NCBI RefSeq assembly: GCF_052049815.1
Contig: NZ_JBNGZG010000002.1
Location: forward strand, 798 to 64,797
DNA: 64,000 nucleotides
Origin: Candidatus Pelagibacter sp.
GTDB taxonomy: Bacteria > Pseudomonadota > Alphaproteobacteria > Pelagibacterales > Pelagibacteraceae
Direction: 5' to 3'
Below are positions 230 to 44,844 of the stretch, in pieces (position 1 is the first letter of the stretch; each line of letters begins with the position of its first letter). Made by a program: the position numbers and the translations under genes. The notes beneath the pieces are model-generated. The model was not told where the DNA came from and made no database searches. It was given only the letters and a program-made list of their open reading frames with translations.

Positions 230-1345
230 ATGACCAAATTAAACTCATTAGGTTTCAATAAAAAACCAGAGGATACACTTGTTGTTGTTGCAATGTCTGG
301 TGGAGTAGATTCTTCAACGGTTGCAGCTATGATGAAAAATGAAGGTTATAAAGTTATTGGTATCACTTTAAAATTATATAATGATACTCAACAAACTACT
401 CAATCAAAACAATGTTGTGCTGGTCAAGATATAATGGATGCAAAAAGAGTTGCTGACAAACTAAACATAGAACATAAAATTTTATATTATCAAAATAAAT
501 TTAAAGAAGGCGTTATAGATAATTTTGTAGAGAGTTATCTAAACGGAGAAACTCCAATACCGTGTGTTCAATGTAATCAAACAGTAAAATTTACCGACTT
601 ATTTGAAGAGTCTAAAAATTTAAATGCAGACGCTTTAATAACTGGTCATTATGTCAAAAGCATCACAGAGAATGGCATTAATCAAATGTATAGGGGTAAA
701 GATAGCAATCGAGATCAGAGTTATTTTTTATTTAATACAACAAGAGAACAACTTGATTATTTAAGATTTCCTTTAGGTGGAATGTTAAAAGATGAAACAA
801 GAAAAATTGCAAAAGATTTAGATTTAAATGTAGCTGATAAACCGGACAGCCAAGATATATGCTTTGTACCCAATGGAGATTATGCATCTGTAATACAAAA
901 ATTTAAACCAGACTCATTTAAAAAAGGAAATATTAAAAATTTAAATGGTGAAGTAATTGGAGTTCATGATGGAATTATCAATTATACTATTGGTCAGCGT
1001 AAAGGAATTAAAATTGCTGATAAAGATCCATTATATGTAATTAAAATTGATGCAAATAATAATGAAATTATTGTAGGCACAAAAAAAAATCTTATTAAAA
1101 AAGAAATTAATTTAAAAGAAGTAAATTTATTAACGAGTAATAATAAAGACTTTGATAAGGAAGTATTTGTAAAAGTAAGATCAACTGGGAAATTGCTTAA
1201 AGCAAAAGTAAATATAAATAATAGTGAAGCCAAAGTTAATTTATTAGAGGATGAATACGGTATAGCTCCTGGTCAAGCATGTGTTTTTTACGCAAAAGAT
1301 AATTTTGGAGATAAAATTTTAGGTGGTGGATGGATTACTAATTAG
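230..1345 (+). CDS. mnmA: tRNA-specific 2-thiouridylase MnmA
   Basis: [11 protein letters not shown]-loop, [27 protein letters not shown] motifs. Confidence 0.97.
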
Positions 1346-2024
1346 TTTTTTTCCACATCAAATTAGTAAGTAAATAAAAAAATATTACCCCCAAAAATAC
1401 ATTCCATTCAAGAGCATGTTTTAAAAATTTAAAGTTATCAAAAGGTAAAAAGGGTAAAACAATTATAGACACAGTAATCAAGGTATTTATTAGAAATTTT
1501 TTCATTTTTAAATATTTTTGATTAATTTTATCTTTGATTTTATCTTTAACTTCAAAGAGAGTTTTAATTAAATAATATTGTGCGATAAGCTCGAAAATTA
1601 TGAAAGACAACATTACTACTCTTCTAAAGAGTTTATATAGATCATATTCAAATTTTACTCCTAAAAATATAGAATGAATTACCAACATTACAGCTGAGCC
1701 TATTCCAAAAAAAATTATTTTTTTTAAATATTTTGTTTCTATATTAAAATGATAAATGATTTTTTTTGTATTCAACCAATATTTGATTAATAGAAAAGCG
1801 GTTAAAAACATTGCAGGTTTAAAAATTAAGTACATAGGGAAATTTCTAACAGTTCTACTTATTGAAACACCACCATCTATATATGGAAATGTGGGAGATA
1901 TTGGCACTCCTGGCTGTAACACTTGATGAAATTGTGTAATAATTAATAGGCAGGAATTTACCGCTATAAATGGAATTATAAATATCCACAACGATATGGA
2001 TCTAATAACCTTTACATTTTCCAT
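1338..2024 (-). CDS. Multi-pass membrane protein of unknown function (possibly Frag1/DRAM/Sfk1-like)
   Basis: 228 aa with about five hydrophobic segments. [17 protein letters not shown] loosely recalls that family; the family call is weak. Confidence 0.7.
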
Positions 2025-2035
2025 GAAAAAAAAGT

Positions 2036-2119
2036 TTATTTCTTCTTATTTTTTTTTCTAGCTCTTCTTTTTTTAGAGCCCATTTTTCTACGGCCTCTAT
2101 GTTTTTTCGGGTATCCCAT
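2036..2119 (-). CDS. 27-aa Lys/Arg-rich micropeptide MGYPKKHRGRRKMGSKKRRARKKNKKK (not in ORF track)
   Basis: ATG 2119-2117, TAA 2038-2036, SD-like AAGGA at 2128-2124, sigma70-like promoter just upstream. 16 of 27 residues are K/R. Confidence 0.75.
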   Translation of the reverse strand: MGYPKKHRGRRKMGSKKRRARKKNKKK

Positions 2120-2146
2120 TTTATCCTTTTATATATAATTTAATTG

Positions 2147-2175
2147 AAATTATTCGCGGGATATAGCATTGTCAA
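2147..2175 (-). promoter_or_regulatory. sigma70-type promoter for the micropeptide / membrane protein unit
   Basis: Minus strand TTGACA (2175-2170), 17-nt spacer, TAATTT (2152-2147). Confidence 0.65.
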
Positions 2176-2195
2176 TTTAACTTATCAATTTTTTT

Positions 2196-3371
2196 ATGAG
2201 CAGTTCTTTTAAAACATTTTTAAAACATACAGCCAAAGATTTTCATAATCAGTCTGTTAATCCACCTGTAGTAAGAGCCTCAACTATTATCTTTAAATCT
2301 ATGCAAGATATTAGAAAAACTCAGTCAAAAGCTAATAAAAATCCAACCGGAGGACATTTTGATTATGGAAGACAAGGGACATCTACTACACATATTTTGC
2401 AAAAAATTTTATCAAAACTTGAAGAAAGCTATCATGTTTTTTTAACTCCAACAGGATTTGGTGCAGTATTCCTATCAATATTTAGCGTCGTAAGACCTGG
2501 AGATGAAATTTTAGTTGCTGATCCAGTTTATAGTCCTACTAGAATTTTAACGCAAGATTTTTTGAAAGAGTTTAATATTAAATCAACATTTTATAATCCT
2601 AGTGATTTAAAAACTTTAGAAAAAAATATAACAAAAAAAACAAAATTAATTTTTGTTGAAAATCCTGGAAGTAATACTTTTGATTTTCAAGATCTTGGAA
2701 AAATAATTTCAATTGCAAAGAAAAATAAAATTTTAACAGCAATTGATAATACATGGGGTACTCCATATTTTTTAAAACCAATTAAACTTGGTTTTGATAT
2801 GGCAATTGTTTCAGCAACTAAATATTATTCAGGTCACTCAGACGTTATGGGAGGATCATTAGCAGTAAATAAAAAAGTTTTTAAACAAATTCAAAAAGCA
2901 GATAAAGTTTGCGGAATGAGAATGAGTCCTGACGATGCTTATTTAATAACAAGAGGACTTAGAACTTTAGATATAAGGTTGGATAGACATAGAGAAAATG
3001 CAAAAAAAGTTTCTGAGTTTTTATCAAATCATAAAAACTTTAAATTACTTTATCCATATAAAAAAGACTCTGTAAATTTTAGGATGTGGAAGAAATATTA
3101 TTCGGGAGCATCTGGTTTAATGGGACTTCGTATAAAAGCTAAGAGTAAAAACTCAGTGGTCAAATTTGTAAACTCATTAAAATTATTTGGTTACGGATAC
3201 AGCTGGGGTGGTTTTGAAAGTTTAGCTTTATATCAAGATGTAAGAGAGCAGGGCAAAAGAAATTTTCTTAAGTTAACTAAAAACGAACATCTTGTAAGAT
3301 TACATATCGGTTTAGAGGATCCAAATGACTTGATTGCAGATTTAAAACAAGCACTCAAGCATTTAAAATGA
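2196..3371 (+). CDS. metC: Cystathionine beta-lyase (PLP trans-sulfuration family)
   Basis: YGRQGT, ENPGS, DNTW, SATKYYSGHSD (PLP lysine), SWGGFESL, RLHIGLED. Confidence 0.9.
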   Translation: MSSSFKTFLKHTAKDFHNQSVNPPVVRASTIIFKSMQDIRKTQSKANKNPTGGHFDYGRQGTSTTHILQKILSKLEESYHVFLTPTGFGAVFLSIFSVVRPGDEILVADPVYSPTRILTQDFLKEFNIKSTFYNPSDLKTLEKNITKKTKLIFVENPGSNTFDFQDLGKIISIAKKNKILTAIDNTWGTPYFLKPIKLGFDMAIVSATKYYSGHSDVMGGSLAVNKKVFKQIQKADKVCGMRMSPDDAYLITRGLRTLDIRLDRHRENAKKVSEFLSNHKNFKLLYPYKKDSVNFRMWKKYYSGASGLMGLRIKAKSKNSVVKFVNSLKLFGYGYSWGGFESLALYQDVREQGKRNFLKLTKNEHLVRLHIGLEDPNDLIADLKQALKHLK

Positions 3372-43876: not shown

Positions 43877-44392
43877 ATGGAAAATAATAAAGATAAAAAA
43901 ACTGACGATATTTTAGAAAAACTAGTCCATATCAACAGAATCACTAAAGTTGTTAAAGGTGGTAGAAGGTTTGGATTTTCAGCATTAGTTGTAGTTGGCA
44001 ATCAAGCTGGCAGAATTGGAATTGCCCACGCTAAAGCTAAACAAGTACCTGATGCTATAAAAAAAGCGAATGAGATGGCAAGAAGAAAACTAATTCAAAT
44101 TCCACTAAGAGAAGGTAGAACAATTCATCATGATGTTAAAGCTAAAGATGGCTCTGGTAGAATAGTATTAAGAGCTGCATCTAAAGGAACTGGAATTATT
44201 GCTGGCGGACCAGTTAGAGCAGTATGTGAAGTTTTAGGAGTTAAAGATATAGTTGCGAAATCGATGGGAACTTCAAATGCACACAATGTAATAAGAGCAA
44301 CAATGAAAGCGCTAATGAAACAAAATTCACCTAAACAAATTTCAGCAATCAGAAATAAAAAAATTTCAGAAATAATTGAAAAAAGAGGATAA
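43877..44392 (+). CDS. rpsE: 30S ribosomal protein S5
   Basis: [27 protein letters not shown]. Confidence 0.99.
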
Positions 44393-44844
44393 TGACTACA
44401 TTAAATACAAAGGTTAAAATTAATAAAAGTAAAATCAGAGTTGGAAGGGGAATTGGCTCTGGTAAGGGAAAAACTTCAGGAAGAGGCATTAAAGGTCAAA
44501 AATCAAGATCAGGTGTTGCTATAAAAAGTTTTGAGGGCGGTCAGATGCCATTATACAGAAGATTACCTAAGAGAGGATTTAATCCAATTTCAAAAGAAGA
44601 TGTTGCAATTTTAAATTTGGAAAAAATTCAATCCTATATTGATAAGAAGAGTATTAAAACTACAGATGTTTTAAATGCTGACACATTAAAAAAATTAAAA
44701 TTAATTAACAAAAATTCAAAAAAACTAAAAATTTTGGGTACAGGCGATATTAAAGACAAAATAAATATCGAAGCAGACCTTGCTTCAAAATCAGCTCTAT
44801 CTAAATTAGAAAAAATTGGCGGTTCAATCCAATTAAAAAAATAG
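44392..44844 (+). CDS. rplO: 50S ribosomal protein L15
   Basis: RVGRGIGSGKGKTSGRG, FEGGQMPLYRRLPKRGF. Confidence 0.99.
   Translation: MTTLNTKVKINKSKIRVGRGIGSGKGKTSGRGIKGQKSRSGVAIKSFEGGQMPLYRRLPKRGFNPISKEDVAILNLEKIQSYIDKKSIKTTDVLNADTLKKLKLINKNSKKLKILGTGDIKDKINIEADLASKSALSKLEKIGGSIQLKK

Follow-up and report, generated by a model that had tools for sequence, protein, structure and literature searches.

A conserved 27-residue basic peptide of SAR11 bacteria and their phages is mutually exclusive with uL30 and may be a small ribosomal protein

Introduction

Several ribosomes contain very small and very basic proteins. bS22 (of Mycobacterium, Cutibacterium, Flavobacterium/Porphyromonas and Borrelia), mS38 and eL41 are encoded by stand-alone genes, have about 30 residues of which about 60% are Lys or Arg, are extremely conserved within their lineages and are easily overlooked by annotation. 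In Borrelia, bS22 was a previously unannotated and essential-looking ribosomal protein, and the authors predicted that bS22 is present in more bacteria (PMC10618245). Two other basic ribosomal peptides, bTHX and bL37 of Mycobacterium, have 24-27 residues, and bL37 sits where the N-terminal extension of uL30 lies in Borrelia (PMC10618245). Here, we describe the gene of a 27-residue Lys/Arg-rich peptide in a 64-kb window from Candidatus Pelagibacter sp. (the whole stretch of DNA that was analysed, 64,000 nucleotides of contig NZ_JBNGZG010000002.1). The peptide resembles these proteins in size and charge, and it is found exclusively in genomes that lack uL30.

The chloroplast provides a second comparison. 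Its ribosome has also lost uL30, together with bL25, and gained small basic lineage-specific proteins, cL38/PSRP6 and cL37/PSRP5. cL38 binds domain gamma of the 5S rRNA, adjoining the sites of uL30 and bL25 in bacteria (PMC5694952). Unlike the chloroplast, SAR11 has retained bL25, and the peptide has no sequence kinship to cL38 or cL37.

The locus itself is not new. Stav et al. 2019 (BMC Microbiol 19:66, PMC6429828) reported it as 'uORF-5' (uORF, upstream open reading frame) with 118 examples, including HIMB5 NC_018643.1/446013-445846. They described an Arg/Lys-rich product whose frame follows mnmA and precedes a cystathionine lyase gene, and read it as an attenuator of the lyase gene. In HIMB5, the peptide studied here is encoded at 445857-445937 on the minus strand, inside the published uORF-5, i.e. 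the two loci are identical and the Arg/Lys-rich product is noted in both. Apart from this, a literature search gave nothing relevant on the peptide sequence, on bS22 in Alphaproteobacteria, on the SAR11 ribosome structure or on suitable proteomics.

SAR11 is the most abundant marine bacterial lineage and serves as a model of streamlined genomes. The inventory of its components changes with a core and probably highly expressed protein that is absent from the standard annotation and has been filed wrongly, as a regulatory uORF.

The peptide is encoded by a genuine gene

A preliminary description of the window had proposed an unannotated gene for a small ribosomal protein. The ATG and TAA codons, the composition of the product (ten Lys, six Arg and no Asp or Glu, 59% K+R), the AAGGA in front of it and the 11 nt to the next gene are exactly as first described, see Table 1. 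A short open reading frame (ORF) alone is unremarkable in an AT-rich genome. ATG-started small ORFs (sORFs) of such composition number only four in the 1.35-Mb genome of this organism. What is remarkable is the conservation.

To describe selection on the peptide ORF we used a set of 146 related loci. These contain 121 distinct nucleotide sequences that encode only 15 peptides, and the length is invariably 27 codons. The entropy is 0.79 at the third codon position, compared with 0.16 and 0.14 at the first two, and at several positions the Arg codons alternate between AGA and CGN across the loci. The summed pairwise ratio of non-synonymous to synonymous differences (pN/pS) is 0.074 in frame, while it is approximately 2.3 in each of the other frames. 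The relatives keep the reading frame, and the peptide ORF is a true protein-coding gene on which purifying selection is very strong. The idea of an independently conserved small-protein gene, of the sort that includes ribosomal proteins, is thereby supported. The word "unannotated" is correct only in that the gene has no name, as the exact peptide is already a called gene on 312 JGI/IMG contigs and was published as uORF-5.

The family follows the pattern M[GS]YPKKHRGRRK[MQIV]GSK[KRI]RR[AN][RK][KR][KR][NAS]K[KRN]K. Its 12 N-terminal residues are invariant among the cellular copies and nearly so among the phage copies described below. Between bacterial families the peptides are 74-78% identical, compared with 56-57% for ribosomal protein S5. 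One complete genome of the same genus (L055, G113) has a frameshifted copy, MGYPKKHRGRRNRVLKKEEL..., with the frameshift apparently inside a homopolymer A run. Either the assembly is wrong here or this copy is a pseudogene.

Mutual exclusion with uL30

The occurrence of the peptide was compared with that of uL30 (the rpmD product, PF00327) in three samples, 151 genomes from the order, 301 from the class and 401 from the phylum. We refer to the Pelagibacteraceae as f1, to their sister family as f2, to other alphaproteobacterial families as f27, f162, f81 and f98, and to genera as g1 and g5-g8. In the order sample, the peptide gene is present as a single copy in 89 of the 91 high-quality genomes of f1, which cover five genera. 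The hidden Markov model (HMM) of the peptide has no match in the 13 high-quality genomes of f2, even at E<=10. Three additional positives were found in the class sample, in families f27 (variant MGYPKKHRGRRKIGSRKRRAKRRAKKK) and f162 (variant MGYPKKHRGRRKRGSKYRRNKKRQKKK), with genome sizes of 1.4-1.6 Mb. In the phylum sample, the HMM matches only the genome from which the window comes. All loci that bear an organism name are from Pelagibacter or Pelagibacteraceae (SAR11).

It had been noted before that rpmD is absent from the spc operon of this genome. This observation was correct, S5 runs directly into L15, and it became the strongest lead of the analysis. PF00327 has no match anywhere in the genome, and uL30 was not found by tblastn either. 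Every other small ribosomal protein tested is present (bL25, bL28, bL31-bL36, bS20, bS21 and uL29). The bL36 of this genome, encoded outside the window (contig C29, 11314-11433), has no cysteines, i.e. it is of the zinc-free type.

Among the genomes of the order sample, 89 have the peptide (all in f1), 49 have uL30 (all in f2) and none has both. In the class sample, uL30 is present in 285 genomes and absent from 16, and all six genomes with the peptide belong to the 16. Counted by family, the peptide occurs in three of the six families without uL30 and in none of the other 173. The Fisher p-values, uncorrected for phylogeny, are 6e-28 for the order genomes, 8e-9 for the class genomes and 2e-5 for the families. 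In f1, f27 and f162, rpmD is cleanly missing between the S5 and L15 genes, while it is present in f2. The peptide and uL30 are thus mutually exclusive across the 151 order genomes and the 301 class genomes.

In a tree of S5, L15, L18 and MnmA, both f1 (support 99) and f2 (support 100) are recovered, and no split joins f1, f27 and f162 against f2. Since the taxonomy also assigns f1 and f2 to a single order, the pattern calls for two or more correlated events. The exclusion pattern is a rare genomic character of Pelagibacteraceae and two other streamlined families, not shared by the sister family. It is therefore of interest for the debate about how these alphaproteobacterial lineages are related, or for gene exchange between them.

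Two more observations concern families that lack uL30. In f98 (L188 and L190; G399 and G268) the genomes are 1.1-1.2 Mb, S5 is directly followed by L15, and neither uL30 nor the peptide is detectable. The S5 of f98 is as near to the SAR11 S5 as that of the sister family is. In a genome of f81 (G251, L198) there is a 646-nt insert at the rpmD site between S5 and L15, with an open frame of about 215 residues that is of low complexity and rich in Arg, Asp, Glu, Lys and Ser.

Comparison with known small ribosomal proteins

The peptide shares several traits with bS22. It falls in the length class of about 30 residues, it has more than 55% Lys/Arg, and its gene is conserved and stands alone. As in bS22, mS38 and eL41, the basic run has one break that consists of a hydrophobic, a small and a Ser/Thr residue. 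It differs from bS22 by the Pro and Gly residues that are conserved in its first half, by the tie to the absence of uL30, by the phage homologues, and by the lack of a detectable sequence or profile kinship.

Neither the peptide, nor its variants, nor a 16-sequence profile has a match in Pfam, NCBIfam or PDB. Three peptide variants did not match the bS22 HMMs PF08213 (COX24_C) and NF047430 at E<=10, while the mycobacterial (Msm) bS22, used as a control, matches them at 4e-12 and 3e-17. The bTHX HMMs PF17070 and TIGR04560 had no match, while the Thermus Thx control is found at 6e-18 and 1e-18. In pairwise alignments with three kinds of bS22, Thx, bL37 and eL41, the z-scores relative to composition-preserving shuffles range from -1.3 to +0.8, and for bTHX and bL37 the scores do not exceed the shuffled controls. 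With hhalign, the probability of a match to the bS22 profile is 1-3% and the score equals the mean of the column-shuffled controls. None of the five small ribosomal-protein profiles compared in this way scores above the shuffled controls, and Thx is below the shuffled mean.

This negative is a weak one. The structurally proven bS22 proteins of Flavobacterium (Fjo) and Borrelia (Bbu) (PMC10618245) likewise miss the Pfam and NCBIfam models. The z-scores of the peptide against bS22 are between -0.8 and +0.8, and that of the Flavobacterium bS22 against the Mycobacterium bS22 is also just 0.8. Because these proven bS22 proteins fail the same test, and resemble the mycobacterial bS22 by composition only, the test has little power. 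Membership in bS22 cannot be shown from the sequences, and an analogy is conceivable. Of the original proposal, the candidate gene for a small ribosomal protein stands as a real and conserved small-protein gene, while the suggested homology to bS22, mS38 and eL41 has not been borne out.

The peptide could still be the SAR11 counterpart of bS22, mS38 and eL41, i.e. a basic peptide located in the 30S subunit between h44 and h45 of the 16S rRNA, with a coincidental link to the loss of uL30. Its length (27 residues versus 30-33), a Lys+Arg content of about 59% and the start with Met followed by Gly or Pro would fit. So would a K-M-G-S motif that the hhalign alignment, which has a probability of 2.6%, places at the same position as K-V-A-T or K-I-S-T in bS22. 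That bS22 escapes current models, was overlooked in the Borrelia annotation and was predicted to be more widespread (PMC10618245) also agrees with this explanation. We nevertheless find it unlikely, given scores at the level of shuffled sequences, the absence of PF08213 (COX24_C/bS22) from all 301 alphaproteobacterial genomes, and an exclusion of uL30 that it leaves unexplained. The invariant Pro4, Gly9 and Gly14 suggest that the N-terminal half is less helical than in bS22, which would argue against the long bent helix of that protein.

The same genome also contains another polybasic sORF (MPKKRKKAAKK...) that is no less similar to bS22, which likewise speaks against this explanation. It lies outside the window (L206, contig C54 4788-4877, minus strand) and encodes MPKKRKKAAKKTKKKAKKKAKKKAKKRRR, 29 residues with 72% K+R, behind a strong Shine-Dalgarno (SD) sequence. 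Its counterpart in Stav et al. 2019 is 'sORF-3' (HIMB5 1188071-1188151), and MPKKRKKAAKKTKKKAKKKAKKKAKKRRR was detected within the genus only.

Three other relationships were considered and rejected. The peptide is not a truncated uL30, as hmmsearch --max against a 20-sequence alphaproteobacterial uL30 HMM gives 0-3 bits (p = 0.04-0.4 from 20,000 shuffles), which is not above chance, and the hhalign probability is 0.3%. A likeness by eye to a loop of uL30 (IGRPKDQR versus MGYPKKHR) fails a shuffle test. Another, to bL34 (HGFRARM versus HRGRRKM), is moot as bL34 itself is present in the genome.

Homologues in phages

A scan of IMG/VR identified 28 viral contigs (GC 32-45%) that encode homologues of 29-40 residues. 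Their conserved core is M[GAS]YPKKH[RK]GRRKxGSKxR, which is followed by a basic tail that is longer than in the cellular copies. Over the 19 shared codons, the pN/pS of the phage homologues is 0.10. These homologues are located inside bona fide phage genomes and are under purifying selection. The cellular and phage copies form a new sequence family common to SAR11-type cells and their phages.

The phages fall into several groups. The first has portal and major head genes and is related to the Pelagibacter phages HTVC023P and HTVC027P, and here the peptide gene is just upstream of an ORF that matches the GroES stretch of these two phages. In two other groups, the neighbours are exonuclease, methyltransferase and integrase genes, and another contig has an HNH endonuclease gene. 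The cultured HTVC023P and HTVC027P do not contain the gene in the homologous region. A tblastn search with a phage variant against the GenBank phages gave no match, probably due to low-complexity filtering. HTVC027P does encode a different Lys-rich peptide of 36 residues, gp51 (L237:4848-4958, MVKGLKKVFKGLKKASKTHAKQAKIVKKHIKKMQKK), flanked by portal-side genes and GroES, and its uncultured relatives bear the SAR11-type peptide in this region.

The first 25 residues of the f162 host variant are identical to one temperate-phage variant, and phages are therefore a plausible vehicle between the lineages. This identity, the presence of phage copies in unrelated genomic settings, three or four at the least, and the patchy occurrence across families would all be expected if the gene were a phage-derived 'moron' that is spread by phages and kept by the host. 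Such a peptide might act on another structured RNA or on an acidic protein, or modulate phage infection. Against this, phage genes are absent around the host copies, and in Pelagibacteraceae the peptide gene is a single-copy core gene at a fixed locus beside mnmA in five genera, a sign of long vertical inheritance. We consider the moron explanation quite improbable.

The phage copies are also relevant for the possibility of a protamine-like peptide that condenses nucleic acids, compacting or neutralising DNA in the tiny SAR11 cell and in phage capsids. The extreme positive charge suits such a function, as do the even longer and basic tails in the phages, the position between portal and major head genes in one group and the different Lys-rich peptide in the same region of HTVC027P. 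However, the non-basic residues Y3, P4, H7, G9, G14 and S15 do not vary among the families and phages, and this would point to a specific binding pocket rather than to generic charge neutralisation. Other phage groups have the gene among early or lysogeny genes and not among structural genes, and DNA condensation leaves the exclusion of uL30 unexplained. We therefore give this possibility little weight.

Phages are known carriers of ribosomal proteins, and the pelagiphage HTVC008M carries bS21. Like phage-encoded bS21, the peptide gene is a small, basic, host-type gene in SAR11 phages that occupies variable, auxiliary-like positions, in one group beside GroES. The ribosomal role of bS21 is established, while that of the peptide is putative, and the tails of the phage peptides are longer than those of the hosts.

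A possible role on the large ribosomal subunit

We tentatively favour a ribosomal role, due to the size, the charge, the positional conservation, the single-copy core status, the uL30 pattern and the phage carriage. The peptide would be a ribosome-bound rRNA-binding protein with a role on the large subunit that is tied to the absence of uL30, and would belong to a new family of small ribosomal proteins. It has the generic traits of a ribosomal protein, i.e. it is encoded by a single-copy core gene under strong purifying selection, with a transcript that is abundant as judged from conservation-biased contigs only.

The proposed mechanism is as follows. The invariant N-terminal half (M-G/S/A-Y-P-K-K-H-R-G-R-R-K-x-G-S-K) would bind a defined pocket in the RNA, with the variable Lys/Arg tail neutralising the charge of the backbone, as is the case for other tiny ribosomal proteins. 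As the peptide is exclusive with uL30, it would most likely sit on the 50S subunit. Its place may be in or near the surface that is normally covered by uL30, where the peptide would stabilise a large subunit without uL30. The phage copies might act like phage-encoded bS21 and supply or remodel a late-binding ribosomal component during infection. A bolder version is that a 27-residue peptide, spread by phages, took over the place or function of the near-universal uL30, and that the long-tailed versions of the pelagiphages remodel the ribosomes of their hosts during infection. We find this version rather unlikely.

Several points weigh against a ribosomal role. Ribosome binding is an inference. 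Sequence and profile tests found no similarity to ribosomal proteins beyond composition, and the peptide gene is located outside every ribosomal-protein operon. One phage group has the gene between those for portal and capsid, a position that a DNA-binding head peptide could have as well. Families f98 and f81 have lost uL30 and do not have the peptide, and uL30 is absent from 145 of 995 bacterial genomes (PMC3353972). The peptide therefore implies the absence of uL30 and not the reverse, and the loss of such a widely missing protein needs no replacement. In the chloroplast, the newly gained small proteins, including cL38, are no structural replacement of uL30 (PMC5694952). Finally, a shared ecology or shared phages among the lineages that bear the peptide may inflate the correlation.

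The expression data fit a ribosomal role, with a caution. Metatranscriptome assemblies of no fewer than 13 studies contain the peptide stretch. In run X18, the summed contig depth over the ORF is 794-1599, compared with about 100-200, with peaks near 600, over L16-L29-S17-L14. In run X28, the corresponding values are 100-303 and mostly below 50. These depths, from strandless contigs, are consistent with abundant transcripts, and they are inflated because the contigs of many strains map to so conserved a gene.

If the peptide is ribosomal, it would add a new family to the few tiny lineage-specific ribosomal proteins. It would also provide a concrete case where the loss of a universal protein, uL30, went along with a newly gained peptide, and one more entry would join the ribosomal components carried by phages. 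The hypothesis of a ribosomal role is directly testable using existing cultures.

Genomic context

In all Pelagibacteraceae, the peptide gene is convergent with mnmA. The other neighbours vary. The metC gene is the upstream divergent neighbour in two of the five genera only, g1 and g8. A gene for a 228-aa membrane protein is located between the peptide gene and mnmA in about 60% of the 146 loci. It is missing in genera g5-g7, where the end of mnmA is within about 20 nt 3' of the peptide gene and the upstream gene is not metC. Where the peptides are 100% identical, the membrane proteins are only 25-62% identical. Metatranscriptome contigs of other strains pass from the ORF directly into the 3' end of mnmA.

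In f27 and f162, mnmA is not linked to the peptide gene. One of these two families has MFS, TPR and MsrB genes as neighbours, and the other has LysR and SbmA/BacA genes. A synteny search found no polybasic sORF beside mnmA in f2, f98, f81, f27 or f162. In the f162 genome G348, the SbmA/BacA-family transporter gene (L149:1634-2635, PF05992, E = 3e-128) is on the same strand, 50 nt 3' of the peptide gene. The SbmA/BacA family imports cationic peptides. This adjacency is seen in one genome only and may be a coincidence.

The peptide gene is a stand-alone gene, as it is divergent from the upstream gene and convergent with mnmA, and its neighbours vary among genera and families. Both leader-peptide readings are therefore rejected. 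In the first, published for uORF-5 and based on the assignment in Table S1 and the supplementary text (PMC6429828), all neighbours are co-oriented and the ORF is a cis-regulatory attenuator of metC. This orientation must be wrong, since mnmA and metC both lie on one strand and the Arg/Lys frame lies on the other, and the ORF is conserved even without either neighbour. The attenuator of metC is thus contradicted by both orientation and synteny.

In the second reading, raised in the preliminary description, the ORF is a leader peptide for the membrane protein. Only 11 nt separate the stop codon from that gene in the window, and runs of AAA Lys codons could influence the movement of the ribosome. 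This suggestion fails, as about 40% of the loci do not have the membrane gene, and nor do three genera, g5-g7, where the convergent mnmA comes next. Among the 146 loci, no regulated gene on the same strand is found family-wide directly 3' of the ORF. Further, it is the exact amino-acid sequence that is under selection, unlike in most leader peptides, and in phages and other families the genes next to the homologues are unrelated. The predicted RNA fold of the locus is not significant (z = -1.4, with A8/U8 pairing only), a scan of the locus found no terminator-like site, and Rfam has no family in the intergenic gap around the ORF. We regard a cis-regulatory function, of either gene, as very improbable.

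Features of the locus

The peptide gene occupies the 171-nt gap between the membrane protein gene and the metC-like gene, Table 1.

Table 1. Features of the peptide locus and of the rpmD site. Coordinates are positions in the 64-kb window, and elements of minus-strand features are written from high to low.
Feature	Position	Strand	Remarks
Peptide ORF, 27 codons + TAA stop, ATG start	2036..2119	-	encodes MGYPKKHRGRRKMGSKKRRARKKNKKK; ~3.3 kDa, pI 12
Shine-Dalgarno-like AAGGA	2124..2128	-	4 nt 5' of ATG, from sequence
First candidate promoter, TTGACA (2175-2170), N17, TAATTT (2152-2147)	2147..2175	-	literal sequence; candidate of the preliminary description
Alternative candidate promoter, TTGATA (2188-2183), N17, TGC-TATATC (2168-2160)	2160..2188	-	conserved across g1 loci only
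228-aa membrane protein gene	1338..2024	-	no Pfam/NCBIfam family; begins 11 nt past the peptide stop
mnmA (tRNA 2-thiouridylase)	230..1345	+	Pfam; convergent neighbour, conserved throughout Pelagibacteraceae
metC-like Cys/Met pyridoxal phosphate (PLP) enzyme	2196..3371	+	Pfam Cys_Met_Meta_PP; divergent from peptide gene
rpsE/rplO junction, rpmD (uL30) absent between	44389..44394	+	rpsE (S5) 43877-44392, rplO (L15) 44392-44844

The AAGGA, or AGGA, is retained in the congeners and is not found in other genera or families. The promoter of the peptide gene is not established. The string TTGACA-N17-TAATTT, which had been put forward as a promoter, is present as described. Its status as a promoter is not supported, as TAATTT agrees with the -10 consensus at three of six positions, a consensus promoter scan made no call on the minus strand of the locus, and TTGACA at -35 is replaced by GGGACA, CGGACA or TCGACA in congeners. 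The ends of metatranscriptome contigs at 2132 were considered as a transcription start and rejected, as they coincide with strain indels.

The alternative promoter in Table 1 belongs to a conserved upstream block, TTGAYA-N17-TGCTATATC, that is confined to the genus. The scan did not call it because position 6 of its -10 element is not T. A promoter role of the TTGATA/TATATC block is conceivable from its sequence, and it could equally serve the divergent metC. Within the metC-peptide intergenic region, and inside the alternative promoter, a 15-nt block, GACAATGCTATATCC (2160-2174, minus strand), is near-invariant across the genus and is missing wherever metC is not the neighbour. GACAATGCTATATCC may be an operator or promoter of metC rather than a part of the peptide gene.

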